Below the pieces are notes generated by a model that saw only the letters and a list, made by a program, of their open reading frames with translations, did not search any database and was not told the DNA's origin. Of a stretch of DNA of 17,995 bases, positions 3,008 to 17,995 are shown piece by piece. Numbering within the stretch: the stretch's first letter is position 1; every line of letters begins with the position of its first letter. The translations under genes were made by a program, and so were the position numbers. The stretch is from Escherichia coli (lineage in GTDB: Bacteria > Pseudomonadota > Gammaproteobacteria > Enterobacterales > Enterobacteriaceae), in assembly GCF_003334335.1 (NCBI RefSeq), contig NZ_QOWQ01000057.1. One strand, given 5' to 3'.

Positions 3008-3220
3008 CAGCTTTTCCTTACAGAGGGTGAATAAAAAAGCCGGTACCCACAAATGTGGATACCGGCAGGTACAAAACAGCATGCTCAGATAAAGTGGTTT
3101 TTCCCGGACATAAATGCTTCCCCTCTCTCATCCGCCAGAGAAGTATCAGTCCGTTGTGTGCAATTCCGTTCTGCATGATGAAGAGATTCAGCTGCCTTTT
3201 CGCAGACCATTAACCACTAT

Positions 3221-3379: not shown

Positions 3380-4252
3380 TCAGAAGAAAATCCAGTTCCA
3401 TACCGCGCGGGCAACAGAGACCACCGTGTCACGGACGGCACGCAGAACTGTGCGTGCAACAGAGGCAACACAGACGCTCTCCACCGTGTCAAATATCCGG
3501 TCCACCGCACCGGTAAACTGTTCACGGGCCTGCCCCCGGACAGATTCCGTGCACAGCTCGTCCTGCAGGCGGGTCATCAGGGGACTGGCGGCATGGTCGG
3601 GAAGCGCTGTCATGAGCGCACTGACCAGCGTATCCAGTTCCCAGCCGGTGCGGGCCGATACGGCAACAACCGGATGTACGGGCCGGAACAGCCGGAATAC
3701 CGCATCTGTTTTTTCGCGAATGTTCTGTTCCTGTGCGGGAGAAGGCTGAATACCTGCCATATCCCATTCATGGCAGGGCTCTGTTTTGTCGGCCTGCGTC
3801 ACCACAAACAGCACCTGCTGATGTCCCCGGTGCAGTATGTGTCGCCAGAAATACTCATCCACAGACAGGGCACGGTCATCGGCTTTAATCAGCCACAGTA
3901 CCAAGTCCAGTTCAGGCAGAATGTCACGGTACAGGGCTTCATACTCTGCATCCCTGTCCCGGCTCTCGCCCACCCCGGGCAGGTCAGTGATAACCATGCT
4001 GTGACCGTGGCCACTCAGACGGAAGCGCCGCACTTCCCGGGTGCCGGCGTGAACATCACTGACCGGGGTGACCTCCCCCTGAAACAGTGCATTACAGAGT
4101 GAGGATTTACCGGCCCCGCTTTTACCCATAATGCCAATCACGGGTTCGTGACTGGTGAGTTTGCGCAGATGTTCCAGGATGTGACGGGAAAGTGAGTAAG
4201 GCAGGGAGGAGAGCGGTTTTTCAATTGCCTCAATGGCATCAGACGGATTCAT
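3380..4252 (-). CDS. yeeP: YeeP/YkfA/YfjP-family P-loop GTPase (50S ribosome-binding GTPase fold), 290 aa, apparently intact
   Basis: The track ORF 3380..4291 begins at a GTG. I trimmed it to the ATG at 4250-4252 (MNPSDAIEAIEKPL...). It has Walker A GKSGAGKSSLCNALF, a G3-like DLPGVGE and a G4-like TQADK. It lies directly upstream of flu, as yeeP does in CP4-44. Confidence 0.9.
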   Translation of the reverse strand: MNPSDAIEAIEKPLSSLPYSLSRHILEHLRKLTSHEPVIGIMGKSGAGKSSLCNALFQGEVTPVSDVHAGTREVRRFRLSGHGHSMVITDLPGVGESRDRDAEYEALYRDILPELDLVLWLIKADDRALSVDEYFWRHILHRGHQQVLFVVTQADKTEPCHEWDMAGIQPSPAQEQNIREKTDAVFRLFRPVHPVVAVSARTGWELDTLVSALMTALPDHAASPLMTRLQDELCTESVRGQAREQFTGAVDRIFDTVESVCVASVARTVLRAVRDTVVSVARAVWNWIFF

Positions 4253-4405
4253 ACATGTATTCCCGGTGAAAAAAGACAAAACCCCGCGCACCGGAAAAGT
4301 GGCGGGGGACTCACGGAGATAATATCTGCCTAAAATTATTTGGAATGCAGGTATATGCAGCTAATTTGTATCGGCTCATTAGTACAGAACTAAACCTCAT
4401 CTGAC

Positions 4406-4467: not shown

Positions 4468-5412
4468 TCACAACCAGCCGACGCTCTCTCGCCATTTATA
4501 ATTAGTAACTTTATCATTTTCGCTTATTTTTTTAGATATAGAGCGCGGCTCTCTTCCTAGATACTCAGATATTTCTATCGGGGACAAATCAAAATCGACA
4601 AGCATGACTCTAAGTTTTTCCATTTCCTTTAAAGTCCAAGGCTTGCCATAATTTTCATAAAGAGATACCTTATGCTCCCTGATAGTTCGCTTTCTCTGAG
4701 TTTCACTTTCCCTCTGAAAAATCTCGCTTTTAAATTGTGAACGGAACTCTTTACAGAAGTTGTTATCAGTTTTTTTGTTATATAGATTGCTAAAAATAAG
4801 CTGGGATGCCGGGTCTAAATCAGGTGTGTTAATAATGAAAACTTTGACCTTTTCCATATAGGGATATTCAATTTTACCCAATATGCTTAATTGCTTTATA
4901 TTAAAAAAACCTCTCAAATCAAAAGATTTAATGAGCTTTGATTGGATTACACTTTCAATCCTGCTTGCATTTGAATAACAGTACTTTGCCATTGGAAGGG
5001 CCCATACTACCAGTTGAGGAATATATTTTTCTAATGCAATGCTCTGCCAATCAGTATCAAAGGTTTGGCTTTTTGCTAGCATGTTTTTCGGCAAATCAGA
5101 ATACATTGTGGTAGATGCCCATATCTTATAATCATTCGCCAAGGCTTGATAGTATTTTGTGTGGTTATGAATTTTATAAGCTGACATGAAGCGATAAACG
5201 TCTTCGTCGTGACCAGCGTCGTAAATTGTTCGATTTCCTCTAAGATAACCGTCGTAATGTTCGGTTATCCTTCTACCTACATTACAACTTACCCCAACGT
5301 AAACCACACGACTGAAAAGTCCTTTATGGACAATAAGATAAACTCCGCTACAGCCAGATTTCCTGGCCTCTGATAGAGAACCTAAAAATCTCCATTCCAT
5401 AATTAAATCCAT
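4468..5412 (-). CDS. Orphan AT-rich gene: divergent GIY-YIG nuclease-like N-terminal domain plus C-terminal Myb/SANT-like HTH tail, 314 aa
   Basis: This is the only long ORF in a visibly AT-rich block. GIY-YIG-like motifs are SGVYLIV (GIY), VVYVGVS (YIG), GRRITEH (conserved Arg/Glu region) and a later RIESVIQ (candidate catalytic Glu). The C-terminal segment GKPWTLKEMEKLRVMLVDFDLSPIEISEYLGREPRSISKKI resembles a Myb/SANT or HTH repeat. The domain calls are by eye only. Confidence 0.75.
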   Translation of the reverse strand: MDLIMEWRFLGSLSEARKSGCSGVYLIVHKGLFSRVVYVGVSCNVGRRITEHYDGYLRGNRTIYDAGHDEDVYRFMSAYKIHNHTKYYQALANDYKIWASTTMYSDLPKNMLAKSQTFDTDWQSIALEKYIPQLVVWALPMAKYCYSNASRIESVIQSKLIKSFDLRGFFNIKQLSILGKIEYPYMEKVKVFIINTPDLDPASQLIFSNLYNKKTDNNFCKEFRSQFKSEIFQRESETQRKRTIREHKVSLYENYGKPWTLKEMEKLRVMLVDFDLSPIEISEYLGREPRSISKKISENDKVTNYKWRESVGWL

Positions 5413-6129: not shown

Positions 6130-6360
6130 AGTGACATTATAAGGAAACGAACAATAGATCGAGTAAATCGCAGTCAGGGACAAGGATTGTAGTCATAGAG
6201 AAGTCTCCTGTAACGGTTTTCAGGAAGCTAATCCCGACGCCTGATTTTGCAGGCGCGGAAGGAGAAGATACTGCGGCCATTAATCCGCCACAAGGCATTT
6301 ACGTGCATAAATCGCGCAGTCAAATCCGACTCCCACTGTAGTTCTTGAACCTGATACCAC

Positions 6361-6378
6361 ATTTAGCTAATTTAGCTA
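6361..6378. repeat. Tandem direct repeat ATTTAGCTA x2 (each with palindromic core TAGCTA), candidate operator
   Basis: The sequence atttagcta atttagcta occupies 6361-6378. It is followed by TATTAT (6386-6391, a -10-like hexamer) and the ATG of the small ORF at 6405. Confidence 0.6.
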
Positions 6379-6404
6379 ACTTATCTATTATACCAGTGGT
6401 TGCC

Positions 6405-6650
6405 ATGAATATGAATGAAGACGAGATTTATCGCCATATCCGGCAGGCACTTTCCAGTGCGCCTCGTAACCAGTACACCGTCGAGCTGCACCTGCAAATG
6501 ATTAAATATGCCGACAAACTGGAACACATTACGGCAAAAGCCTTTTGCGAAGGCACTGGTCTGAACCAGAGCCTCGGTACCGAATTCAGCAAAATGCGTA
6601 ACTTAACCCATCGGTTAAAGGCCGCCGGTCTGAATACCGATCTGCTGTAA
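6405..6650 (+). CDS. Small (81 aa) HTH-like protein at the head of the hsd operon; candidate regulator
   Basis: The track ORF starts at a TTG (6345). The first ATG is at 6405 (MNMNEDEIYRHIRQAL...). The segment ITAKAFCEGTGLNQSLGTEFSKMRNL looks like a helix-turn-helix. The gene is co-directional with hsdM and ends 39 nt before it. Confidence 0.55.
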   Translation: MNMNEDEIYRHIRQALSSAPRNQYTVELHLQMIKYADKLEHITAKAFCEGTGLNQSLGTEFSKMRNLTHRLKAAGLNTDLL

Positions 6651-6689
6651 CCGACTTACGGCACATTATCGCGCAAAACGAGATATTTA

Positions 6690-9128
6690 ATGGCTATCAA
6701 AAAAACCGAACTCTATTCTTCCCTGTGGGCAAGCTGCGACGAACTGCGTGGCGGGATGGACGCCAGCCAGTACAAAGACTATGTACTGACCCTGCTGTTT
6801 ATGAAGTACGTTTCCGATAAGTATAAAGGCGATCCTTACGGGATGATCGTGATACCCAAAGGAGCCAGCTTTGACGATATGGTTGCGCTGAAAAATGACA
6901 AAGAGATCGGCGACAAAATCAACAAAATCATCCACAAGCTGGCGGAAGAGAACGGCCTGAAGGGCGTCATCGACGAAGCCGACTTTAACGACGAAGATAA
7001 GCTCGGCAAAGGCAAGGAAATGATTGACCGCCTGAGCAAGCTTGTCGGTATCTTTGAAGGGTTAAATCTCTCCAGCAACCGGGCCGAAGGCGACGATCTG
7101 CTGGGCGATGCCTATGAATATCTGATGCGTCACTTCGCAACCGAATCCGGTAAGAGTAAAGGGCAGTTTTACACTCCAGCGGAGGTGTCACGTATTCTGG
7201 CGAAGGTGATTGGTATTACTCCCGATACTCCGCAAGATGCAACGGTTTATGACCCAACCTGTGGCTCTGGTTCGCTGCTGTTGAAAGTGAATGATGAAGC
7301 CCGGCGCGGACTGTCGATTTTCGGCCAGGAGATGGATAACGCTACCAGTGCGCTGGCGCGGATGAACATGATTCTGCATAACAATGCCACCGCGAAAATC
7401 TGGCAGGGCAATACGCTGAGCGATCCGCAGTGGAAAGAGGCGAACGGCAAACTGAAAGCCTTCGATTTTGCCGTGGCGAACCCGCCTTTTTCCAATAAAA
7501 ACTGGACCAACGGGCTGACGCCGAAAAAAGATCCGTTTGAACGCTTCGGCTGGGGTATTCCGCCGGAAAAAAACGGCGATTATGCTTTTTTGTTGCATAT
7601 CATTAAAAGCCTGAAAAGTACCGGCAAAGGCGCGGTGATCCTGCCCCACGGCGTACTGTTTCGCGGTAACGCCGAAGCGAATATCCGTGAAAATCTAATC
7701 AAGCAGGGCTATATCAAAGGCGTTATTGGTTTGCCAGCCAACCTGTTTTACGGCACCGGCATCCCGGCGTGCATCATTGTGATTGATAAAGAGCACGCCC
7801 ACAGCCGCAAAGGCATTTTTATGATCGACGCCAGCCGGGGCTTTATCAAAGATGGCAACAAGAACCGCCTGCGTAGCCGAGATATTCACCGCATTGTGGA
7901 CGTGTTCAACCATCAGCGAACGGTACCTGGCTACAGCCGGATGGTGCCCTCCAGCGAGATCGCCGGAAATGATTACAACCTGAATATTCCTCGCTATATC
8001 GAGAGCGGCGAGCCGGAAGATTTACACGATCTGACCGCGCACTTACAGGGCGGTATTCCGGCACGCGATGTGGATGCTTTGCAAGATTACTGGCGGGTAT
8101 TCCCTGCCCTGCGCAACGTGCTGTTTGCTGACGACCGTCCCGGTTACTGTCGGGCGCAGGTGAACGCGCAACAGGTGAAACCGACCATTCTGGCGCATCA
8201 GGAGTTTAAGGATTTTGCCACCCGCAGCCTGCTACCGTTTAAAGCGTGGGTGAAAGAGGCAAGTCTGGAAGAGATTCGCAAAGGTGATAAACCCAAAGCG
8301 CTAATCCACGATATCAGCGAAATGCTATTGGCGCAGTACGCCAACAGTGAGTTGCTGAACAAATACAGCGTGTACCAGATCCTGATGGATTACTGGACTG
8401 ATGTCATGCAAGACGATGTGTATGCGATTATGCAGGATGGCTGGCAAGCCGCCGCGCAAATCCGCGAGCTTCAGCCGGTGAAAGGCAAAGATGGCAAAAA
8501 CATCTGGAAAGAAACGCACGATTTCGAGTTTACCAAACGGCGCTACAAGGCCGATGTGCTGCCCCGTTCGCTGGTGGAAATTCGCTGTTTCCCGGAACTG
8601 CTGGATGCGCTGAACCGCGCGCAGGAGCGCAGTGAAGAAGCCAGTCGTCAGCTAGTGGAATTCATCGAGGAGCAGGCAGGTGAAGAGGATCTGCTGGCCG
8701 AGGCGAAGAACGATAAAGATAAGGTGACGCAAAAGCTGGTGAATGCCCGTCTAGCACAGTTAAAGAAAACCACTGCCGGCCCAGATGAGCTGGCAGTGCT
8801 GAACCGCTGCCTGGCGCTAATTAAGGCCGAAGCCAGTGCGAAAAAAGCGCTGAAAGCCGCACAAGAAGCGCTGGATCGGGCGGTGTTTAAACATTATCCC
8901 ACGCTGGATGAAGCAGCGATTAAAACGCTGGTAGTGCAGGATAAGTGGCTGGCAACGTTGCAGGCAGGGATCAAGGCGGAGATTGAGCGTATTACCCAGC
9001 AACTGGCGTCGCGCGTAAAGGAGCTGGAAGAGCGTTATGCTGAACCGTTGCTAGCGCTTGAAGCCTCCGTTGAGGCGTTGAGCGAGAAAGTGGCCGAGCA
9101 TTTGCGGGCGATGGGGCTGGAGTGGTGA
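6690..9128 (+). CDS. hsdM: Type I restriction-modification methyltransferase subunit HsdM, unusually long (812 aa)
   Basis: The N-terminus is HsdM_N-like (ELYSSLWASCDELRGGMDASQYKDYVLTLLFMKYVSD). The AdoMet motif is VYDPTCGSGSLLL (about residues 186-198) and the catalytic motif is ANPPF (about residues 263-267). The core ends near NLNIPRYIE (about residue 438). Roughly 365 further residues are rich in predicted coiled coil. Confidence 0.97.
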   Translation: MAIKKTELYSSLWASCDELRGGMDASQYKDYVLTLLFMKYVSDKYKGDPYGMIVIPKGASFDDMVALKNDKEIGDKINKIIHKLAEENGLKGVIDEADFNDEDKLGKGKEMIDRLSKLVGIFEGLNLSSNRAEGDDLLGDAYEYLMRHFATESGKSKGQFYTPAEVSRILAKVIGITPDTPQDATVYDPTCGSGSLLLKVNDEARRGLSIFGQEMDNATSALARMNMILHNNATAKIWQGNTLSDPQWKEANGKLKAFDFAVANPPFSNKNWTNGLTPKKDPFERFGWGIPPEKNGDYAFLLHIIKSLKSTGKGAVILPHGVLFRGNAEANIRENLIKQGYIKGVIGLPANLFYGTGIPACIIVIDKEHAHSRKGIFMIDASRGFIKDGNKNRLRSRDIHRIVDVFNHQRTVPGYSRMVPSSEIAGNDYNLNIPRYIESGEPEDLHDLTAHLQGGIPARDVDALQDYWRVFPALRNVLFADDRPGYCRAQVNAQQVKPTILAHQEFKDFATRSLLPFKAWVKEASLEEIRKGDKPKALIHDISEMLLAQYANSELLNKYSVYQILMDYWTDVMQDDVYAIMQDGWQAAAQIRELQPVKGKDGKNIWKETHDFEFTKRRYKADVLPRSLVEIRCFPELLDALNRAQERSEEASRQLVEFIEEQAGEEDLLAEAKNDKDKVTQKLVNARLAQLKKTTAGPDELAVLNRCLALIKAEASAKKALKAAQEALDRAVFKHYPTLDEAAIKTLVVQDKWLATLQAGIKAEIERITQQLASRVKELEERYAEPLLALEASVEALSEKVAEHLRAMGLEW

Positions 9129-10462
9129 TGGTGGATTTAATGGTGAATGAGCAACGGTCGAGTACGGCGGGGAAAGATGTGCCTGCGGGGTATAAACTGA
9201 CTGAGGTGGGCGTGATTCCTGAGGATTGGGATTGCGTACCATTTGGTAATCTGTTTAAAACAAACACAAAGAAAAAAAAAGTCAGCGATTATGAGCTAGT
9301 TTCATTTATTGGGATGCAGGATGTTAGTGAAGATGCACAATTAAAAAATAATACTCAACTTCCTTTTAAAGAAGTTAAAAGTGGTTTTACTTACTTTGAA
9401 AAAGGGGATGTTTTATTAGCTAAAATAACCCCTTGTTTTGAAAATGGAAAAGGATGTCATACCGCTGATTTACCTACTAATGTAGGTTTTGGGAGTACGG
9501 AATTTCATGTATTAAGGGAAAATGAAGACTCCGATTCTCGCTTCATCTATTTTTGGACAACTGATAAAAAATTCAGAGCATCACTGGAATCTGAAATGGT
9601 GGGAAGTGCGGGACACCGTCGTGTGCCGCTAGTTGCTATAGAAAAATATTTGATTCCATGTCCCCCAAATTTGCAAGAGCAAAGTGCTATTGCTGATTCA
9701 TTATCTGATATTAATAATTTTATTCTAGCTCTAGAAAAGCTTATCGTTAAAAAACAAGCCATTAAAACCGCTACTATGCAGCGACTACTGACTGGTAAAA
9801 CCCGTTTGCCACAGTTTGCGTTGCGCAAAGATGGCTCTGCTAAGGGATATAAAAAGAGCGAGTTGGGGGAGATTCCTGAAGATTGGAATTGTATTAATCT
9901 TGGTGAGCTAGGTAATTGCATTATTGGGTTAACTTACAAACCTGAAGATACATCTGATTATGGTACATTGGTATTACGCTCATCCAACATTCAAAATAAT
10001 CACTTAGCTTATGATGATAACGTCTTCGTCAGCATAGAACCACCTGAACGCACAATTGTGAAAGAAGGTGATATCTTGGTATGTGTAAGAAATGGCAGTC
10101 GCCAACTTATTGGCAAATGCGCATTAATTGACAAAAATGCGCAGGGCTCAGCATTCGGTGCATTTATGTCAGTATTCCGAACTGATATATATGGATTTAC
10201 ATTTCACCAATTCCAGTCTGATATTATTCAAAAGCAAATCGCTGAAGTTATGGGTGCCACTATCAATCAGATAACTAACAAAGATATGTTGGGCTTTAAA
10301 ATCCCATTACCTGAAAATACAGAAGAACAAGCCGCCATCGCCGCCATCCTCTCCGATATGGACAAGGAAATCCAGATCCTGCAACAGCGTCTGGACAAAA
10401 CCCGCCAGCTTAAGCAAGGGATGATGCAGGAACTGTTAACCGGGAAAATCCGCTTAATATAG
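9128..10462 (+). CDS. hsdS: Type I R-M specificity subunit HsdS with two target-recognition domains
   Basis: The ATG at 9128 overlaps the hsdM TGA as TGATG. The track ORF starts at the GTG at 9122. TRD entry motifs are duplicated (GVIPEDWDCVPFGNL and GEIPEDWNCINLGEL). Conserved helical spacers are also duplicated (QSAIADSLSDINNFILALEKLIVKKQAIKTATMQRLLTGKTRLP and QAAIAAILSDMDKEIQILQQRLDKTRQLKQGMMQELLTGKIRLI). Confidence 0.95.
   Translation: MVDLMVNEQRSSTAGKDVPAGYKLTEVGVIPEDWDCVPFGNLFKTNTKKKKVSDYELVSFIGMQDVSEDAQLKNNTQLPFKEVKSGFTYFEKGDVLLAKITPCFENGKGCHTADLPTNVGFGSTEFHVLRENEDSDSRFIYFWTTDKKFRASLESEMVGSAGHRRVPLVAIEKYLIPCPPNLQEQSAIADSLSDINNFILALEKLIVKKQAIKTATMQRLLTGKTRLPQFALRKDGSAKGYKKSELGEIPEDWNCINLGELGNCIIGLTYKPEDTSDYGTLVLRSSNIQNNHLAYDDNVFVSIEPPERTIVKEGDILVCVRNGSRQLIGKCALIDKNAQGSAFGAFMSVFRTDIYGFTFHQFQSDIIQKQIAEVMGATINQITNKDMLGFKIPLPENTEEQAAIAAILSDMDKEIQILQQRLDKTRQLKQGMMQELLTGKIRLI
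9272..9280 (+). repeat. A9 homopolymer inside hsdS TRD1 (encodes part of TKKKKV)
   Basis: The read gaaaaaaaaag gives nine consecutive A residues at 9272-9280, inside the hsdS coding frame. Confidence 0.9.
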
Positions 10463-10474
10463 AAGGGAAAGCAC

Positions 10475-11131
10475 ATGGCTTATGATTACAGCGCCAGCCT
10501 CAACCCGCAAAAAGCTCTGATCTGGCGTATCGTCCATCGGGACAATATCCCGTGGATTCTGGATAACGGGCTGCACTGCGGCAACAGTCTGGTGCAGGCG
10601 GAAAACTGGATCAATATCGGCAACCCGGAGCTGATCGGCAAGCGTGCCGGGCATCCGGTACCTGTCGGAACGGGCGGGACACTGCATGACTATGTGCCGT
10701 TTTATTTTACCCCCTTCTCGCCAATGCTGATGAACATCCACAGCGGGCGCGGCGGCATTAAGCAACGCCCCAATGAGGAGATCGTTATTCTGGTCAGCAA
10801 CTTGCGAAACGTGGCAGCACACGACGTACCCTTCGTGTTTACCGACAGCCATGCTTACTATAACTGGACCAACTACTACACCAGTCTGGATAGTCTGGAC
10901 CAGATCGACTGGCCCATTTTGCAGGCACGGGACTTTCGCCGCGATCCAGACGATCCGGCTAAATTTGAACGCTATCAGGCAGAGGCGCTAATCTGGCAAC
11001 ACTGCCCGATCTCTCTGCTGGATGGGATAATTTGTTACAGCGAAGAGGTCAGGTTACAATTAGAACAATGGCTGTTTCAGCGTAATCTAACAATGTCCGT
11101 TCACACACGGGCTGGATGGTACTTCTCATGA
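10475..11131 (+). CDS. darT: DarT (DUF4433) ssDNA thymidine ADP-ribosyltransferase toxin, 218 aa
   Basis: Motifs typical of DUF4433/DarT are [17 protein letters not shown] near the N-terminus, [13 protein letters not shown], and the putative catalytic Glu in RYQAEALIW. The gene is followed by a macrodomain gene with an ATGA overlap. An AAGGGA Shine-Dalgarno sequence lies upstream, and the start is 12 nt after the hsdS stop. Confidence 0.9.
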
Positions 11132-12195
11132 TCACATATACACAAGGCAATTTACTGGACGCACCGGTGGAAGCTCTGGTGAATACGGTTAATACCGTCG
11201 GTGTCATGGGGAAAGGCATCGCGTTGATGTTTAAAGAGCGCTTCCCCGAAAATATGAAAGTCTATGCCCTCGCCTGCAAACAAAAGCAGGTGATCACCGG
11301 CAAAATGTTCATTACCGAAACCGGGGAACTGATGGGACCGCGCTGGATTGTTAATTTTCCGACCAAACAGCACTGGCGCGCTGATTCCCGCATGGAGTGG
11401 ATTGAAGATGGCTTGCAGGACTTACGCCGCTTTTTGATTGAAGAGAACGTGCAGTCCATCGCCATTCCACCACTGGGCGCAGGCAACGGTGGTTTGAACT
11501 GGCCGGACGTTCGGGCGCAGATTGAATCTGCCCTTGGCGACCTTCAGGACGTTGATATCCTGATTTACCAACCGACTGAAAAATACCAGAACGTTGCCAA
11601 AAGCACTGGCGTAAAAAAGCTCACTCCCGCCAGAGCCGCCATCGCTGAACTGGTGCGTCGCTACTGGGTATTGGGGATGGAGTGCAGCCTACTGGAAATC
11701 CAGAAACTGGCCTGGCTGTTACAACGCGCCATTGAGCAGCATCAACAGGACGATATCCTCAAACTGCGGTTTGAAGCTCACTATTATGGCCCCTATGCGC
11801 CCAATCTGAACCATCTGCTTAATGCGCTGGACGGCACCTATCTTAAAGCCGAGAAACGCATCCCGGACAGCCAACCGCTGGATGTGATCTGGTTTAACGA
11901 TCAGAAAAAAGAACACGTTAATGCGTATCTGAACAACGAAGCCAGAGAGTGGCTACCTGCGCTGGAGCAGGTCAGCCAGTTAATTGACGGCTTTGAATCG
12001 CCGTTTGGTCTGGAGTTGCTGGCAACCGTAGACTGGTTGCTGAGCCGTGGCGAATGTCAACCAACGCTGGATTCCGTTAAGGAAGGGCTGCACCAGTGGC
12101 CTGCGGGCGAACGCTGGGCCAGCCGTAAGTTGAGGCTGTTTGATAATAATAATCTGCAATTTGCCATTAACCGCGTAATGGAGTTCCATTGCTGA
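11128..12195 (+). CDS. darG: DarG antitoxin: N-terminal macrodomain (ADP-ribosyl-DNA glycohydrolase) plus C-terminal DarT-binding-type domain, 355 aa
   Basis: The start [40 protein letters not shown] is a canonical macrodomain beginning. NFPTKQHWR and [13 protein letters not shown] are also macrodomain-like. The ATG at 11128 overlaps the darT TGA (ATGA). The track ORF starts 12 nt earlier, at 11116. Confidence 0.92.
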
Positions 12196-12213
12196 GGGTT
12201 TAAGGAGCGCCTT

Positions 12214-15200
12214 TTGAGTACCGTGGGCCAGCGCGAACGCGCCACACAGCAGCGTCTGATTCAGTTTTTTGTTGAAGATTTAGGTTACCGCCATCTGAGT
12301 CACCGCACCGGGTACACCGGGAACAGCAACATCGACACTAATATACTGAGCGCGTGGCTAAAACGGCGCGGCGTTAATGATACGTTGATCACCCGGGCGT
12401 TGCGGCAACTGGATTCCGCCGCCGCTCTGGGCGAAGGCAAAAAACTCTATTACGCCAATAAAGAGGTCTATCGCCTGCTGCGTTACGGCGTGAAAGACAA
12501 AGAAGGCGCAGGCGAGCAGAACCAAACCGTGTGGCTGATTGACTGGGCCAACCCACAAGCCAATGATTTCGCCATCGCCGATGAGGTGACGGTCAAAGGC
12601 GAGTACTGCAAGCGCCCGGATCTGGTGCTGTACGTTAACGGCATTGCGCTGGGCGTGATTGAACTTAAGCGTTCGTCAGTGCACGTCAGCGAAGGCATCC
12701 GGCAGAATCTCGATAATCAAAAGAAAACCTTTATCCGCGATTTCTTCACCACTATGCAGTTAGTGATGGCGGGCAACGATACGCAGGGCCTGCGCTACGG
12801 CACCATCGAAACCCCGGAAAAATACTATCTGGAGTGGAAAGAAGATAATCCAGGCGACTATACACATAAACTCGACTTTCATTTAAGTCGTCTGTGTAGC
12901 AAATCCAGGCTGTTGGATATCGTCCATAATTACATTGCCTTTGATGTCGGGGTGAAAAAACTCTGCCGCCATAATCAGTTCTTCGGCGTCGAGGCGGCTA
13001 AACAACATATTGCCCGTCGTGAAGGCGGTATTATCTGGCACACACAGGGATCGGGTAAAAGCCTGACGATGGTCTGGCTGGCGAAGTGGATCCGTGAAAA
13101 TGTGCCAAACTCCCGCGTGTTGATTGTGACTGACCGCACCGAACTGGATGAACAGATCGAAAGCGTGTTTATGGGCGTGAATGAAGATATTTATCGCACC
13201 TCCAGCGGCAACGATCTTATCGCAACGCTCAATCATCCTAACCCGTGGCTCATTTGCTCGCTGGTGCATAAATTTGGTCGTCGCAGCGAAGCTGAAGACA
13301 ATGCGGCTACCGACGCCTTTATCACCGAATTACAGCAGTCCCTGACGAAAACATTCCGCGCCAAAGGCGATCTGTTTGTTTTTGTGGACGAGTGCCACCG
13401 CACACAATCCGGCAAGTTGCATAACGCCATGACTGCCATTCTGCCGGACGCCCTGTTTATCGGTTTTACCGGCACACCGCTGATGAAGAAAGATAAGAAG
13501 AAGTCGGTTGAGGTGTTCGGCCCTTATATCCATACCTATAAATTTGATGAAGCGGTGGCCGACGGTGTGGTGCTGGATCTGCGCTACGAGGCACGCGATA
13601 TTGACCAGTATCTGACATCAGAGAAAAAGGTCGATGACTGGTTTGAAGCCAAGACTCGCGGTTTGTCGAATTTAGCCAGGACCCAGCTTAAGCAAAAGTG
13701 GGGATCAATGCAGAAGCTGCTCTCCAGCAAGTCGCGGCTGGAGCAGATCGTTAACGACATTTTGCTGGATATGGATACCCGTCCACGCCTGATGGACGGG
13801 CGCGGCAACGCCATGCTGGTATGCAGCAGTATCTATCAAGCCTGCAAGGTTTACGAGATGTTCAGCCAGACCGAGCTGGCAGGAAAAGTAGCGATTGTGA
13901 CCAGCTATCGCCCCGATGCCGCCAGCATCAAAGGCGAAGAAACGGGCGAAGGGTTAACGGAGAAACTCTCTAAACACGCCACCTATCGTAAAATGTTGGC
14001 TGACTATTTTGAACAAAGTGAAGAGAAGGCCGCCGCACGCATTACCGAGTTCGAGCGGGAAGTGAAACAGCGTTTTATTGAAGAGCCGGGGCAAATGCGC
14101 CTGCTTATCGTGGTGGATAAGCTGCTGACTGGCTTTGACGCGCCGTCCGCCACCTATCTCTACATTGATAAAACCATGACCGACCATACGCTGTTTCAGG
14201 CGATTTGTCGGGTGAACCGGCTGGACGGTGAGGATAAAGAGTATGGCTATATTATCGATTATAAAGATCTGTTCCGTTCGCTGGATAAAGCGATTACCGA
14301 TTACACCACGGGCGCGTTTGATGATTACGATCGGGACGATGTGGCCGGGTTGCTGAAAGACAGGCTGGAGCAGGCGCAACTGGATCTCGACAGCGCGCTG
14401 GAGATGGTTCGCAGCTTATGTGAACCCGTCAAAACCCCGCGCAGCCTGCTGGACTATCAGCACTATTTTTGCGGTGAATCAGGAGAGAATCAGACTTCGT
14501 TAAACGAAAAAGAGGCGCTGCGCCTGACATTTTACCAGTGCGTCGCCCGTCTGCTACGCGCTTATGCCAGCATCGCCAATGAAATGCCGGAAGCAGGCTA
14601 CACTGCCGAAGAGGTAGAGAGCATTCGCGCCGAAGTCGCTGAATTCGAAAAACTGCGCTATGAGATTAAGCTGACCAGCGGCGATCTTCTGGATATGAAG
14701 CGCTTTGAACCCGCTATGCGTCATTTACTGGATATGTATGTTCGCGCCGATGGTAGCGAAGTGCTGATGGATTTTGAAGAGTTAAGTCTGATTGAACTGA
14801 TTGTCGAGAAAGGCTTGGCGGCGACCGTCGCCCTGCCGGATGATATCCGTAATAATCAGGATGCGATGGCGGAAACCATCGAAAACAACGTGCGCAAAAC
14901 CATCGTGGATGAAAACCCGGTTAACCCAAAATACTATGGACGCATGTCGCAGCTGCTGGATGAACTGATTACCCTTCGCCGACAAAATGCGCTCAATTAT
15001 CAGCAGTATCTGGAACGTATCCGCGATTTGTGTAAACAGGTCATCCGCCCGGAGCAAACCGCCGGAGCGTGCTACCCTGCCACCATGGATACACAAGCAA
15101 AGCGCGCCTTCTATGATAACTTCGGCCACGACGAGGTACTGGCGACCCGCATAGATACGACGATTCGCTATACCAAAAGGGCAGAGTGGATTGGCGATCG

Positions 15201-15309
15201 TTTTAAAGAACGGGAAATTGCCAACGCATTACGTGAAGAGACCGCCAGCTATAATATTGATATTGATGAGGTGATAGCGCTTGCCCGTCAGCAGAAGGAA
15301 TATCACTGA
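12214..15309 (+). CDS. hsdR: Type I R-M restriction/translocase subunit HsdR, 1031 aa, TTG start
   Basis: The N-terminal PD-(D/E)xK nuclease motif is RPDLVLYVNGIALGVIELKRS. SF2 helicase motif I is HTQGSGKSLTM and motif II is FVFVDECHRTQ. The following FIGFTGTPL and LTGFDAP/QAICRVNR motifs are present. The TTG at 12214 lies 6 nt after the strong Shine-Dalgarno sequence AAGGAG (12202-12207). Confidence 0.96.
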   Translation: MSTVGQRERATQQRLIQFFVEDLGYRHLSHRTGYTGNSNIDTNILSAWLKRRGVNDTLITRALRQLDSAAALGEGKKLYYANKEVYRLLRYGVKDKEGAGEQNQTVWLIDWANPQANDFAIADEVTVKGEYCKRPDLVLYVNGIALGVIELKRSSVHVSEGIRQNLDNQKKTFIRDFFTTMQLVMAGNDTQGLRYGTIETPEKYYLEWKEDNPGDYTHKLDFHLSRLCSKSRLLDIVHNYIAFDVGVKKLCRHNQFFGVEAAKQHIARREGGIIWHTQGSGKSLTMVWLAKWIRENVPNSRVLIVTDRTELDEQIESVFMGVNEDIYRTSSGNDLIATLNHPNPWLICSLVHKFGRRSEAEDNAATDAFITELQQSLTKTFRAKGDLFVFVDECHRTQSGKLHNAMTAILPDALFIGFTGTPLMKKDKKKSVEVFGPYIHTYKFDEAVADGVVLDLRYEARDIDQYLTSEKKVDDWFEAKTRGLSNLARTQLKQKWGSMQKLLSSKSRLEQIVNDILLDMDTRPRLMDGRGNAMLVCSSIYQACKVYEMFSQTELAGKVAIVTSYRPDAASIKGEETGEGLTEKLSKHATYRKMLADYFEQSEEKAAARITEFEREVKQRFIEEPGQMRLLIVVDKLLTGFDAPSATYLYIDKTMTDHTLFQAICRVNRLDGEDKEYGYIIDYKDLFRSLDKAITDYTTGAFDDYDRDDVAGLLKDRLEQAQLDLDSALEMVRSLCEPVKTPRSLLDYQHYFCGESGENQTSLNEKEALRLTFYQCVARLLRAYASIANEMPEAGYTAEEVESIRAEVAEFEKLRYEIKLTSGDLLDMKRFEPAMRHLLDMYVRADGSEVLMDFEELSLIELIVEKGLAATVALPDDIRNNQDAMAETIENNVRKTIVDENPVNPKYYGRMSQLLDELITLRRQNALNYQQYLERIRDLCKQVIRPEQTAGACYPATMDTQAKRAFYDNFGHDEVLATRIDTTIRYTKRAEWIGDRFKEREIANALREETASYNIDIDEVIALARQQKEYH

Positions 15310-16025
15310 TGCCAATCATGCAAATAGGCTCGTTACACTTGCTGGTCAACCGTAAGGCGATTAAGAATCTGCATATCAGCGTGCTGCCGCCTGATGGCAA
15401 AGTCCGCGTTTCAGCGCCGGAACATATGACGGAGACGGCGATTCGTATGGCGGTTGCTTCACGCTTTCGCTGGATCAGAAAACAGCAGCAGGATTTCGCC
15501 AGACAGCCTCGTCAATCAGAGAGGGAAATGGTCAGCGGAGAGTGCCACTATCTTTGGGGCCGAAGATATCGCCTACTTGTGATTGAGCGTCACGGGCGTC
15601 ACGAAGTAAAAGTTGCAGGAAATAATAAGCTCCAGCTTTATGTTCAACCGGGAACCCGTGATGAAAATAAGGCATTGGCGTTAAGTGAATTTTATCGACA
15701 TGAACTAAAACAGCAGGTGGCTAAGCTTCTACCTGAATGGCAGGACCGAATCGGTGTTCCCCTAACATTCTGGGGCATCAAAAAGATGAAAACCTTTTGG
15801 GGCACCTGTAACACTACAACAAAACGAATCTGGCTCAATCTGGAGCTAATTAAGAAGCCGCCGGAGTGTCTGGAGTATATTCTGGTGCATGAACTGGTTC
15901 ATCTTCTGGAACGTCACCATAATGCTCGCTTCCGGTTGCATATGGATCGGTTTATTCCTGACTGGCGTGAGCGTCGGGATTTGTTAAATAATATGCCGTT
16001 AGCGTTTGAGGCATGGGAGTATTGA
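15309..16025 (+). CDS. DUF45/YgjP-like (M48/WLM-like) HExxH zinc metallopeptidase, 238 aa, coupled to hsdR
   Basis: The zinc-binding motif is HELVHLLERHH near the C-terminus, preceded by WGTCNTTTKRIWLNLELIK, which is typical of DUF45. The ATG at 15309 shares one nucleotide with the hsdR TGA (TGATG). AAGGA lies 9 nt upstream. Confidence 0.9.
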   Translation: MPIMQIGSLHLLVNRKAIKNLHISVLPPDGKVRVSAPEHMTETAIRMAVASRFRWIRKQQQDFARQPRQSEREMVSGECHYLWGRRYRLLVIERHGRHEVKVAGNNKLQLYVQPGTRDENKALALSEFYRHELKQQVAKLLPEWQDRIGVPLTFWGIKKMKTFWGTCNTTTKRIWLNLELIKKPPECLEYILVHELVHLLERHHNARFRLHMDRFIPDWRERRDLLNNMPLAFEAWEY

Positions 16026-16342: not shown

Positions 16343-16523
16343 AAGGTAGCCTGAGTTTAACGGACACTCCTTCGTAAGGAGCTAAGGCTACGCTGTAAGC
16401 AGAAACGCAAGTTCAGAGCGACTACGAACTCGAACCACAATCTGCCAGTTGCGCCAAATCTGCTGAACCAGACGTTCGCTCCTACAGCACCAAATCAGGT
16501 CTGGGTGGCGGACCTGACGTATG
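16342..16523 (+). mobile_element. Internally deleted IS3-family remnant (IS600-like as far as I can recall): left end fused to a mid-orfB fragment
   Basis: 16342-16372 (taaggtagcctgagtttaacggacactcc...) resembles an IS3-family terminal inverted repeat. 16382-16522 translates in frame as LRLRCKQKRKFRATTNSNHNLPVAPNLLNQTFAPTAPNQVWVADLTY. That is the conserved region just before and including the first catalytic Asp of IS3-family OrfB transposases. The orfA gene and the start of orfB are absent, and the fragment stops abruptly at the IS66 end. Confidence 0.8.
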
Positions 16524-16608
16524 GTAAGCGTAAAGCCAATGCCGTCTGTAACACCTGCTCCTTGCAGACTAAATTAGAGCTCCTTCTAAATTAGACGGAG
16601 TTCTATTG

Positions 16609-17043
16609 ATGGATAAACCTACAGACTGGCGCTCCGGAACCCGCCGGATATTTTCTAATGAATTTAAACTTCATATGGTTGAACTGGCTTCGAAACCAAA
16701 TGCCAATGTTGCACAACTGGCCCGGGAACATGGCGTTGATAACAACCTGATTTTTAAATGGCTACGCCTCTGGCAAAGAGAAGGACGTATTTCTCGCAGA
16801 ATGCCTCCAACTATTGTAGGCCCTACAGTATCACAATCTTTTCCGGCCTCTCCGACTCTGGTTCCAGTGGAACTTATCGACACCCCGCGCTGTGCTACAG
16901 ATGCTCCTGCTCCGGAGGCATTATCAGTTGCTTGTGCAGCTTCCTGCCATGTGGAATTCCATTACGGTAAAATGATGCTGGAAAATCCTTCACCAGAGCT
17001 GCTCACGGTGTTGATCCGTGAGCTGACCGGGAGGGGACGATGA
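16609..17043 (+). CDS. tnpA: IS66-family accessory protein TnpA (HTH, transposase_8-like)
   Basis: MDKPTDWRSGTRRIFSNEFKLHMVELASKPNANVAQLAREHGVDNNLIFKWLRLWQREG is the IS66 orf1 type. The ATG at 16609 lies 8 nt after GGAG. The track ORF starts at the TTG at 16606. Confidence 0.9.
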   Translation: MDKPTDWRSGTRRIFSNEFKLHMVELASKPNANVAQLAREHGVDNNLIFKWLRLWQREGRISRRMPPTIVGPTVSQSFPASPTLVPVELIDTPRCATDAPAPEALSVACAASCHVEFHYGKMMLENPSPELLTVLIRELTGRGR

Positions 17044-17390
17044 TTTCACTCCCATCAGGTACCCGTATCTGGCTCGTTGCCGGCGTTACTGATATGCGTA
17101 AATCCTTCAACGGTCTGGGGGAGCAAATACAGCATGTGCTGGATGATAACCCCTTCTCCGGTCACCTGTTTATCTTCCGTGGCCGACGGGGAGACACGAT
17201 TAAAATCCTGTGGGCTGATGCTGATGGTCTGTGCCTGTTCACCAAACGCCTTGAGGAAGGTCAGTTTATCTGGCCTGCGGTGCGTGACGGTAAGATATCC
17301 ATTACCCGCTCGCAACTGGCAATGCTCCTCGATAAGCTGGACTGGCGTCAGCCAAAAACATCCCGCCTTAACGCACTGACAATGTTGTAA
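17040..17390 (+). CDS. tnpB: IS66-family TnpB (IS66 Orf2)
   Basis: MISLPSGTRIWLVAGVTDMRKSFNGLGEQIQHVLDDNPFSGHLFIFRGRRGDTIKILWADADGLCLFTKRLEEGQFIWP is a near-textbook IS66 Orf2. It overlaps tnpA by ATGA. Confidence 0.95.
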   Translation: MISLPSGTRIWLVAGVTDMRKSFNGLGEQIQHVLDDNPFSGHLFIFRGRRGDTIKILWADADGLCLFTKRLEEGQFIWPAVRDGKISITRSQLAMLLDKLDWRQPKTSRLNALTML

Positions 17391-17420
17391 AAAACTCCTG
17401 ACCGCATTATAAAAACGGCC

Positions 17421-17995
17421 ATGAGTCAGAAATACCTCATTCGCATCGCTGAGCTGGAAAGGCTGCTCTCTGAGCAGGCTGAAGCCCTCCGTCAGAAAGA
17501 CCAGCAACTGAGTCTGGTTGAAGAGACGGAGGCCTTCCTGCGCTCTGCACTGGCACGTGCCGAAGAAAAGATCGAAGAAGATGAACGGGAAATAGAGCAT
17601 CTGCAGGCTCAGATAGAAAAACTGCGCCGGATGCTGTTCGGAACCCGTTCTGAAAAACTGCGTCGTGAGGTTGAACAGGCTGAAGCCCTGCTGAAACAAC
17701 GCGAGCAGGAAAGCGATCGTTACAGTGGGCGTGAGGATGACCCGCTGGTTCCCCGCCAGTTGCGACAGTCGCGCCATCGTCGTCCGTTACCGGCACATCT
17801 CCCCCGTGAAATATACCGCCTGGAGCCTGAAGAAAGCTGTTGCCCGGAGTGTGGCGGTGAGCTGGATTATCTGGGGGAAGTCAGCGCAGAACAACTGGAA
17901 CTGGTGAGCAGCGCCCTGAAAGTGATCCGCACAGAACGGGTAAAAAAAGCCTGTACAAAATGTGACTGCATCGTTGAAGCACCGGCACCATCCCG
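17421..17995 (+). CDS. tnpC: IS66-family DDE transposase TnpC, N-terminal 191 codons (open at the window end, absent from the ORF track)
   Basis: My own translation from the ATG at 17421 gives MSQKYLIRIAELERLLSEQAEALRQKDQQLSLVEETEAFLRSALARAEEKIEEDEREIEHLQAQIEKLRRMLFGTRSEKL...CCPECGGELDYLGEVSAEQLELVSSALKVIRTERVKKACTKCDCIVEAPAPS. This shows a leucine-zipper/coiled-coil region followed by the CxxC...CxxC zinc finger typical of IS66 TnpC. There is no stop before 17995. Confidence 0.9.
   Translation, partial: MSQKYLIRIAELERLLSEQAEALRQKDQQLSLVEETEAFLRSALARAEEKIEEDEREIEHLQAQIEKLRRMLFGTRSEKLRREVEQAEALLKQREQESDRYSGREDDPLVPRQLRQSRHRRPLPAHLPREIYRLEPEESCCPECGGELDYLGEVSAEQLELVSSALKVIRTERVKKACTKCDCIVEAPAPS

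Follow-up and report, generated by a model that had tools for sequence, protein, structure and literature searches.

The window analysed here, i.e., the whole stretch of 17,995 nucleotides of Escherichia coli DNA, was found to contain seven co-directional genes, all on the + strand, in the order rptR-hsdM-hsdS-darT-darG-hsdR-M48 (Table 1). This is the gene order of the E. coli "RRDM" phage-defence island published previously, and, judged by its sequence, the locus is an allele and a near-identical copy of that island.

Table 1. Position and assignment of the features of the RRDM-type locus in the window.
Feature	Position	Strand	Evidence
-35 box TTGAAC, island promoter	6345..6350	+	Same hexamer in window, EPEC and strain 1303
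Putative RptR operator	6362..6387	+	Motif positions; two direct repeats plus TATCTA variant
rptR, small HTH-like repressor, 79 aa	6411..6650	+	Pfam HTH_73 1.9e-28
hsdM, type I methyltransferase, 812 aa, long C-terminal extension	6690..9128	+	Pfam N6_Mtase 6.7e-104, HsdM_N 2.4e-17
hsdS, specificity subunit, two target-recognition domains	9128..10462	+	Pfam Methylase_S, two stretches; PADLOC Specificity_I
darT, ssDNA thymidine ADP-ribosyltransferase toxin, DarT2 type (predicted)	10475..11131	+	Pfam DarT 3.1e-53; PADLOC DarT 2e-74
darG, antitoxin: macrodomain ADP-ribosyl-DNA glycohydrolase plus C-terminal domain (predicted)	11128..12195	+	Pfam Macro 2.7e-21; PADLOC DarG 1.4e-127
hsdR, type I restriction/translocase subunit, TTG start after AAGGAG	12214..15309	+	Pfam HSDR_N 2.8e-41, SWI2_SNF2 7e-70, T1R_D3-like 2e-38; PADLOC REase_I
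M48, YgjP-like (DUF45)/M48-family Zn metallopeptidase	15309..16025	+	Pfam YgjP-like 1.4e-61, positions 5-206 of 207

Gene organization and comparison with the EPEC island

The domain content predicts a type I restriction-modification (R-M) system consisting of an HsdM with an N6_Mtase domain, which matched PADLOC MTase_I over its full length, an HsdS with two target-recognition domains, and an HsdR that combines a nuclease with an SF2 motor. Likewise, darT and darG are predicted to form a DarTG2 system, in which a DarT domain with the catalytic glutamate is joined by an adjacent macrodomain DarG. The Pfam DarT (DUF4433) profile was covered at 201/201 positions, and both the catalytic E170 (QAEAL) and G49 were present. 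DarG, whose gene lies directly 3′ of darT, was shown to be of the macrodomain type and not of the NADAR type, and PADLOC DarG covered 326/329 positions. The M48 peptidase contains the HExxH zinc-binding motif as HELVH (residue 194) and also gave a weak SprT-like match in Pfam; a sequence search for homologues with a solved structure returned none. In an identical genome, rptR has been annotated as a CDS of 240 nt; an alternative ATG is located at position 6405 and would result in a product of 81 aa.

A gap of 39 nt separates rptR from hsdM, hsdM and hsdS overlap in GTGATGG, and hsdS is followed by darT after 12 nt (AAGGGAAAGCAC). The darT and darG genes overlap in ATGA, 18 nt (GGGTTTAAGGAGCGCCTT) lie between darG and hsdR, and the hsdR stop codon overlaps the M48 start codon in TGATG. 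Direct reading of all junctions agreed with the first-pass annotation, in which seven co-directional genes had been described as a tightly packed composite defence module; this layout is real. The statement that the GC content of darTG matches that of the hsd genes holds for hsdM (0.529) and hsdR (0.516) compared to darT (0.531) and darG (0.519), the M48 gene being at 0.483; hsdS is a GC outlier (0.394) that was absent from that annotation.

At the protein level, DarG was identical to EPEC WP_000634203.1 and the M48 peptidase to EPEC WP_001122107.1, and the remaining proteins except for HsdS differed from their EPEC counterparts by 3 (DarT), 3 (RptR), 4 (HsdR), and 19 (HsdM) residues. HsdS was the only substantially divergent protein (38% identity to EPEC HsdS) and matched the EPEC and strain 1303 alleles solely in the conserved N-terminal, central and C-terminal segments, with two variable blocks in between. 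With target-recognition domains unlike those of EPEC HsdS, the enzyme of the window should recognise another sequence. The locus in the window and EPEC RRDM share the seven genes, their order, the junctions, the -35 box and the TAGCTA operators, except that the EPEC operator contains three TAGCTA motifs, whereas that of the window contains two TAGCTA and one TATCTA. Besides, the EPEC island is flanked by IS100/IS3, whereas an Ag43/GTPase island and an IS66 element were found at the flanks in the window.

The EPEC RRDM island as a whole was reported to defend against phages and to cut T7 plating 1,000-fold, and infection lifts the hsdM transcript >15-fold (PMC12255303). The presence of DarTG within type I operons was noted already in 2016 (Jankevicius et al.). 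The novelty of the module that was implied by the first-pass annotation could not be upheld, as this island has already been published together with its promoter, its repressor and the protection it gives against phages.

Promoter, operator and predicted transcript

In EPEC, the island promoter was mapped upstream of rptR and RptR was shown to repress the island (PMC12255303); the TTGAAC -35 hexamer is required (Zhang et al.). In the window, motif positions relative to the rptR ATG are -66 for TTGAAC, -47 and -38 for TAGCTA, and -29 for TATCTA. The operator includes two 9-bp direct repeats, TTTAGCTAA (6362-6379), and the TATCTA motif (6382-6387) is in the same 9-bp phase. The direct repeats overlap the functional -10 box, AGCTAATTT (6365-6373), so that, as in RRDM, at least two TAGCTA-type 6-bp palindromes are predicted to cover the -10 box upstream of rptR. 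Repression needs no more than two RptR sites, and TATCTA has been predicted as a variant to which RptR binds (PMC12255303).

By extension from EPEC, where this was shown, transcription of the locus would start from a sigma-70 promoter upstream of rptR with its -10 box under the RptR operators, and RptR would keep transcription low. One polycistronic and translationally coupled transcript would run from rptR through hsdM, hsdS, darT, darG and hsdR to M48; with one mapped promoter and the tight spacing of the genes, a single transcript is the most likely arrangement.

It had been stated in the first-pass annotation that there is no room for internal promoters. This applies to the intergenic gaps, but not to the AT-rich hsdS gene, in which the promoter scan detected promoter-like hexamer pairs (three + strand matches at 10110-10302). 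These matches were not counted as a conserved darTG promoter, because the hsdS recognition domain in which they are located is variable and not shared by other alleles. Over the whole region, the scan detected 13 promoter-like hexamer pairs compared to 12.5 expected from shuffled sequence, which is not above expectation, and with promoter and terminator counts of this order the scans neither show nor exclude internal promoters.

The hsdS-hsdR slot and the M48 peptidase gene

Of the 5,426 complete genomes of E. coli, 249 were found to contain the island, in which several alleles of hsdS occur, and the hsdS allele of the window was carried by 70 of the approximately 249 island-bearing genomes. 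Counts by segment ranged from 249 to 264 genomes (darTG 249, hsdM 249, hsdR-M48 258). A count of 943 genomes was discarded, as it derives from short flanks and not from island genes. Thus, the darTG insertion is not confined to one clone, a possibility that the first-pass annotation had asked to be checked, since it occurs in 249 E. coli genomes and in other genera. In E. coli AL.H8, two DUF262 genes occupy the slot between hsdS and hsdR.

A census anchored on HsdR covered 80 other species with this HsdR family, in which 69 loci could be assessed for the slot and 77 for M48. The slot was filled in 64/69 loci (93%) and empty in five, with a median length of 3.4 kb, and was shown to hold at least 12 alternative cassettes. 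TgvAB-like GmrSD pairs, which have the two-gene GmrSD/DUF262 domain architecture of TgvAB, were the commonest (23 loci), followed by Schlafen-AlbA2 (19 loci), ABC ATPase (nine loci), DarTG (only about nine loci), NucS-like PDC-S02 (eight loci), Fic PDC-S04 (five loci), and Gabija (two loci); RES- and zeta-toxin-domain proteins, MazF and others were also found. This suggests that DarTG belongs to a wide range of exchangeable cassettes carried in a conserved slot that separates hsdMS, the modification part, from hsdR-M48, the restriction part, in this type I family.

A similar organization is known from V. cholerae VPI-2, where TgvAB forms a co-oriented two-gene defence cassette between hsdS and hsdR, although the cargo there is type IV GmrSD-like and not a toxin-antitoxin pair, and the operon contains five genes and no peptidase (PMC11411939). 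Embedded defence systems in Hma, BREX, DISARM and type I R-M loci were described under the term "guilt by embedding" in the survey by Payne et al. 2024 (10.1101/2024.01.29.577857). The survey and the present census have co-oriented embedded cassettes in common, and PADLOC candidate (PDC) families PDC-S02, PDC-S04 and PDC-M31, of a class of models constructed by Payne et al. from embedded genes, recur in the slot; the two differ in that the former is at survey level, whereas here a single M48-linked type I family shows a slot that is near-obligatorily filled.

The high occupancy of the slot and the median length of its contents would also be in line with a role of the insert as a spacer that delays and lowers HsdR relative to the methylase and would thereby favour safe establishment in a new host, the cargo itself being incidental. 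In type I systems, restriction has to set in with a delay once the genes have been transferred. However, the five loci with an empty slot presumably function, and in the vast majority of cases the slot contains recognisable defence genes and not arbitrary DNA; we regard a spacer effect as highly improbable.

According to another explanation, proposed as an alternative by Jankevicius et al., DarTG stabilises the operon or island by addiction or hitch-hikes selfishly, with phage defence being secondary. A selfish linkage benefit is mentioned by Payne et al., the E. coli hsd family is almost never found without darTG according to the segment counts given above, and Fic, zeta, RES and MazF show that other cargoes of the slot have toxin-type domains. 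Nevertheless, the majority of cargoes (GmrSD pairs, Gabija, nucleases) do not represent addiction modules, E. coli 1303 has kept the island with a frameshifted darT, and anti-phage activity has been demonstrated for DarTG systems, while the island is a functional defence. An addiction or stabilising role as the main function is thus considered quite unlikely.

The M48 gene was located directly 3′ of hsdR in 77/77 assessable loci, whatever the cargo and with empty slots included, at a median gap of 4 nt. M48 also followed hsdR in a more distantly related type I family with 28-31% HsdR identity, in which DarTG occurs as well. By association, M48 is an accessory of hsdR and not of DarTG, and it presumably also functions as such. 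The idea put forward in the first-pass annotation, that the peptidase senses for DarTG, was not confirmed, since M48 follows hsdR regardless of the cargo. Cleavage of RptR by M48, in analogy with CapP/CapH, was rejected as a general role, as RptR was found before hsdM in only 9/54 assessable non-E. coli loci compared to the presence of M48 in all assessable loci. A literature search for DUF45/COG1451 alongside type I R-M revealed nothing useful; this association is said to have been listed by Makarova and colleagues in 2011.

Probable autonomy of DarTG and proposed relation between the defence layers

Of 62 assessable close homologues of DarG (identity of 65% or more), 43 (69%) were found upstream of an hsdR, and such embedded homologues occurred in two unrelated type I families, both with M48. 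This affinity of DarG for hsdR has a specificity beyond that expected of random neighbourhood in a defence island. The other 19 homologues (65-83% identity) were free-standing with no hsdR downstream and had neighbours including aconitase B, speE and polA; inspection of ten flanking genes in six of these 19 loci showed mostly housekeeping genes. Similar divergence of DarG and HsdR was seen across genera, which fits the old association that had been proposed from the sequence of the window. A Mantel test of HsdR versus DarG distances was significant (Spearman 0.31, with three loci each from E. coli and Aeromonas dominating the data), and gives weak support for a possible co-inheritance of the two.

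In EcoprrI, the prrC gene is located between hsdS and hsdR, the same position as that of darTG in the window. The two loci are also alike in that an effector gene is embedded in a type I hsd locus (type IC in EcoprrI) and would act as a second line behind restriction. PrrC differs in being a single protein that is masked by Hsd and responds to T4 Stp, and its gene is nearly always embedded, whereas DarT has its own antitoxin, DarTG is not known to interact with Hsd or to be triggered by anti-restriction, and 19/62 close DarG homologues have no downstream hsdR. The idea of a PrrC-style "backup", implied to be new in the first-pass annotation, has been discussed in general terms for embedded systems.

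If the likeness to PrrC extended to function, Hsd and/or M48 would hold DarT/DarG latent and free DarT upon an attack on the type I enzyme by a phage anti-restriction protein such as Ocr or Stp. Besides the shared position with prrC, this would agree with the location of most close DarG homologues upstream of hsdR in two distant M48-bearing type I families, and with the 1,000-fold protection by RRDM against T7, a phage that makes the type I inhibitor Ocr. The block of T7 despite Ocr, however, fits simple layering and an Ocr-triggered guard equally. Several observations argue against a guard: close homologues of up to 83% identity are free-standing, whereas PrrC is embedded with few exceptions; at least 12 unrelated cargoes were found in the slot; and M48 accompanies every cargo, and none. 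Moreover, DarG by itself neutralises DarT, and DarTG thus already has its own restraint. The toxicity of EPEC DarT and its rescue by DarG were shown to work without Hsd proteins, and the DarG macrodomain alone rescues (Lawaree et al. 2020).

In V. cholerae, TgvAB, a neighbouring cargo, works with hsdR K172A, i.e., without HsdR nuclease activity (Vizzarro et al., PMC11411939); protection by tgvAB without the rest of the cluster was 10-100-fold weaker than that by the complete cluster, a difference that the authors ascribed to expression (PMC11411939). The DarTG2 system of the Laub laboratory was located in a P2-like prophage by means of a primer from a later paper of the same group, and this primer had no match in the window. 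The prophage system shares with the window a DarT ADP-ribosyltransferase and a macrodomain DarG, and differs in having its own promoter and no R-M context. Run from that promoter, it defends in K-12 MG1655, which is without this Hsd family. With 23% identity for DarT and 47% for the DarG macrodomain compared to the window, this distant system argues for autonomy at the family level only. Taken together, control of DarTG by a guard of this kind appears unlikely.

We consider it probable that the locus consists of co-transcribed but mechanistically independent defence layers, i.e., an RRDM allele with DarTG in the cargo slot and M48 associated with hsdR. In the first layer, the HsdM2S/HsdR2 type I enzyme would methylate self DNA and cut unmodified incoming DNA. 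The second layer would be DarTG. EPEC DarT ADP-ribosylates thymidine in ssDNA and DarG reverses this (Lawaree et al. 2020), and by analogy the same activities are expected for the pair in the window, in which DarT has 3 residue changes. Once restraint by DarG ends, DarT would modify ssDNA thymidine and block replication, and DarTG may thereby provide an abortive second defence against phages that escape restriction. Regulation and inheritance would be common to both layers, but no joint sensing mechanism would link them.

A wider proposal is that the M48-linked type I R-M scaffold is a general guard platform, in which Hsd and/or M48 senses anti-restriction and licenses the cassette in the slot. 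This seems distinctly improbable; if true, it would explain the 93% filled slots, the recurrence of close DarTG relatives in this slot in two unrelated M48-bearing type I families, and the block of T7 by RRDM.

As a discovery, the locus has little weight, since the island and the embedding of defence cassettes in type I operons were already documented. The census, by showing that M48 tracks hsdR and not the cargo, sharpens the question of the role of M48. The hsdS-hsdR slot of this HsdR family represents a rich and well-delimited place to seek further defence genes.

The seven-gene island and its published counterpart

The first-pass annotation had described a run of seven tightly packed co-directional genes, and this was borne out by the ORF listing and by direct reading of the junctions, all of which were as described: hsdM overlaps hsdS (…GTGATGG…), darT starts after a 12-nt gap (AAGGGAAAGCAC) and overlaps darG by ATGA, and hsdR starts after an 18-nt gap (GGGTTTAAGGAGCGCCTT) and overlaps the peptidase gene by TGATG. 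Each of the hsd, darT, darG and peptidase identities was confirmed by profile searches, and the first gene, previously left unnamed, was found to encode an HTH_73 protein. The GC content of darT (0.531) and darG (0.519) matched that of hsdM (0.529) and hsdR (0.516), as claimed for the hsd genes in general, but not that of hsdS, which at 0.394 was far below the rest of the operon (approximately 0.52).

Features of the seven-gene operon, its promoter region and its surroundings
Feature	Position	Strand	Evidence or remark
Ag43/Cah-type autotransporter adhesin gene	161–3082	-	adjoins island on 5′ side
GTPase-family gene	3380–4291	-	5′ of island
314-aa ORF	4468–5412	-	RefSeq "hypothetical"; GC 0.364
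-35 box	6345–6350		sequence reading
Two TTTAGCTAA repeats	6362–6379		operator
TATCTA	to 6387		one 9-bp step on
rptR, HTH_73 protein	6405/6411–6650	+	ORF listing, profile search
hsdM	6690–9128	+	N6_Mtase 7e-104
hsdS	9128–10462	+	Methylase_S, two stretches
darT	10475–11131	+	Pfam 3e-53, PADLOC 2e-74
darG	11128–12195	+	Macro domain; PADLOC 1e-127, full-length
hsdR (TTG start)	12214–15309	+	HSDR_N, SWI2_SNF2, domain 3
Peptidase gene (YgjP-like/DUF45)	15309–16025	+	1.4e-61; HELVH motif
IS66-family tnpA	16606–17043		
IS66-family tnpB	17040–17390		

The reading of these genes as a tightly coupled composite module was correct, and its demonstration at island level has already been published. The island is the known RRDM, described by Zhang et al. 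(Nucleic Acids Res 2025; PMC12255303), in which DarTG2 is located between hsdS and hsdR, with rptR upstream and an M48 metallopeptidase gene downstream; the arrangement had been noted already by Jankevicius et al. Protein comparison with the locus of EPEC E2348/69 showed identical DarG and M48 sequences and few differing residues in DarT (3), RptR (3) and HsdR (4), with 19 in HsdM. HsdS alone diverged markedly (38% identity), with two differing recognition domains flanked by conserved segments at the N-terminus, centre and C-terminus. The cloned 9.8 kb EPEC island, under its native promoter in DH5-alpha, protected against five phages, with reductions of >10^7 for Trib and Baz, ~10^4 for lambda-vir and TB34 and 10^3 for T7, and infection raised hsdM mRNA more than 15-fold (PMC12255303).

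The EPEC promoter requires the -35 box TTGAAC and the first AGCTAATTT -10 box, and it is repressed by RptR binding to 9-bp direct repeats containing TAGCTA, of which two suffice (PMC12255303). The -35 box was kept in the window, and the two operator repeats were followed by TATCTA, a predicted RptR binding variant (PMC12255303). These elements are thus shared with EPEC RRDM, except that E2348/69 contains three TAGCTA repeats, with TATCCA at the equivalent fourth position. Only two sites were found in E. coli 1303, and operator copy number therefore differs among island alleles.

Distribution and surroundings of the island in E. coli

Among 5,426 complete E. coli genomes, darTG was found in 249, hsdM in 249 and hsdR-M48 in 258 (the latter two as matches at least 80% covered), showing that darTG is nearly always present with this hsd family in the species. 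The association was not confined to one clone, since hosts, hsdS alleles and flanks varied. Hosts included EPEC O127:H6, O157:H7, ETEC O6:H16, NCTC86, and isolates from animals and the environment. The full hsdS allele of the window was present in only 70 genomes, while approximately 160 matched the second recognition domain only and others the conserved core only; recognition domains are thus shuffled among island-bearing E. coli. The wider 18 kb context was common to 193 genomes, and the flanks of EPEC and strain 1303 differed from it. In strain 1303, darT was annotated as frameshifted (L002, the 1303 locus, 6303–6918) with darG, hsdR and M48 intact, so the island can evidently outlast the decay of its toxin. 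The related hsdR-M48 genes of E. coli AL.H8 (74% nucleotide identity) were accompanied by two DUF262 genes in place of darTG, also starting 12 nt past hsdS.

The Ag43 and GTPase genes adjoining the island are a typical E. coli genomic-island context. The low-GC 314-aa ORF close to the 5′ end of the island gave no PADLOC match, and its lone match was a sub-threshold one to GIY-YIG (E 0.017, residues 22–62); it could be a candidate for a further defence-type nuclease gene. On the other side (region 16350–17995), the match ended for most related genomes at 16523, where a remnant resembling IS600 is broken by an IS66-family element. The whole window was matched only by NCTC86 and B-2207.

Cargo between hsdS and hsdR

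An HsdR scan with one genome per species gave 80 loci (64–80% identity), mostly from Gammaproteobacteria, which were analysed by ORF clustering and by tBLASTn searches using the seven proteins of the window, with cargo assigned by Pfam and PADLOC. The M48 gene was located 3′ of hsdR in all 77 loci where the contig continued (median gap 4 nt), including five in which the hsdS–hsdR interval was empty. The interval was filled in 64 of 69 resolved loci, with cargo of median 3.4 kb and maximum 7.8 kb, nearly all of whose genes were co-oriented with the hsd genes.

This cargo is highly diverse. TgvAB-like GmrSD/DUF262 pairs were found in 23 loci and Schlafen-AlbA2/HATPase_c_4 proteins in 19, nine of them with an 880-aa ABC/SMC-type ATPase alongside. 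DarTG was present in about nine loci (8 intact plus fragments), a NucS-like nuclease (PADLOC candidate PDC-S02) in eight, Fic (PDC-S04) in five, and PDC-M31AB and Gabija GajAB in two each; zeta-, RES-, PLD+SNF2- and REase-type genes, among others, were also detected. Loci whose HsdR was closest to that of E. coli (79–80% identity) carried cargo other than DarTG. Outside E. coli, RptR was encoded 5′ of hsdM in only 9 of 54 assessable loci, and another small HTH protein at that position in six further ones. The census extends the findings of Zhang et al. (PMC12255303), who reported darTG2 in 12 of the 54 type I systems linked to RptR and, in four genomes, a different gene pair at the same place. 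It also agrees with the account of embedded defence genes given by Payne et al. 2024.

The complete Gabija pairs (GajA PADLOC 5e-254; GajB a UvrD-type helicase) were from Zobellella denitrificans and an Alteromonadaceae MAG (loci L028 6290–10004 and L035). A second insertion site, between hsdM and hsdS, was seen in L005 (3737–4804), L007, L026, L028, L034, L047, L066 and likely L027; it held a conserved YhcG/DUF1016 PD-(D/E)XK nuclease of ~350 aa, and in L047 additionally a MazF/PemK toxin gene. Two loci (L025 9503–9949; L056 9490–9974) carried a lone 149-aa macrodomain directly 5′ of hsdR, without darT and behind other cargo. It was 74% identical to the DarG N-terminus with a good Pfam Macro match, and L056 also contained DarG fragments; such genes may be either cargo-replacement scars or orphan antitoxin-like genes.

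The first-pass annotation, which as a whole is partly supported, had proposed that the Hsd complex and/or the peptidase keeps DarT latent until anti-restriction attack releases it, as EcoprrI does PrrC. This explanation is weakened by the census, since the interval accepts many unrelated cargoes and the peptidase is present whatever the cargo. A further argument against it comes from V. cholerae, where TgvAB, which represents the commonest type of neighbouring cargo, still functions when HsdR is nuclease-dead (PMC11411939).

Embedded and free-standing DarTG

A metagenome scan with DarG gave 80 loci (65–100% identity), 62 of them assessable (at least 1.5 kb of downstream sequence or a detectable hsdR). 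DarG homologues preceded an HsdR of the same family in 24 and a distantly related type I HsdR in 19 (HsdR 28–31%, HsdM 33–38% identity), while no hsdR was detected in the other 19. In the distant family, an hsdS-like match lay just 5′ of darT and an M48-like gene (25–29% identity) followed hsdR wherever the contig reached far enough; metagenome contigs of this kind (L133, L135, L136, L138, L140, L142, L145, L152, L160, L161, L163; DarG 67–69% identical) have darTG again between hsdS and hsdR, with an M48-like peptidase gene again 3′ of hsdR. Around six of the loci without hsdR, seven of ten flanking genes checked had housekeeping-type annotations (aconitase B, spermidine synthase/AdoMet decarboxylase, glutathione synthetase-like ligases, Na+/H+ exchanger, polA, sulfate permease, cytochrome cd1) and two ORFs gave no Pfam match; one locus had ParA-like and SF1-helicase neighbours instead. 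The closest free-standing DarG homologue was 83% identical to that of the window. The affinity of this DarTG subfamily for the interval is therefore strong without being obligatory.

Recurrence of close DarTG relatives at the same place in two distantly related M48-bearing type I families, and protection by RRDM against T7 although T7 produces Ocr, would still fit the less likely case of DarT being held latent by the Hsd complex and/or the peptidase. Against this, close DarG homologues exist without a nearby restriction-modification system, whereas PrrC is almost exclusively embedded. Moreover, DarT has its own dedicated antitoxin, sufficient alone to neutralise it, and the DarTG2 used in K-12 by the Laub laboratory (DarT 23%, DarG 47% identity to the window proteins) has its own promoter in a P2-like prophage hotspot.

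The RptR-repressed promoter upstream of rptR, induction by infection and protection as a unit have been shown for EPEC, and the corresponding arrangement is conserved in the window. One translationally coupled transcript would span all seven genes, with type I restriction as the probable first layer and DarT, ADP-ribosylating thymidines in ssDNA, as an independent abortive back-up. DarTG would then be swappable cargo between a modification unit (hsdMS) and a restriction unit (hsdR-M48), and the M48/YgjP peptidase an HsdR-associated accessory, for which built-in restriction alleviation or HsdR turnover, by analogy with ClpXP acting on EcoKI, is a reasonable guess.
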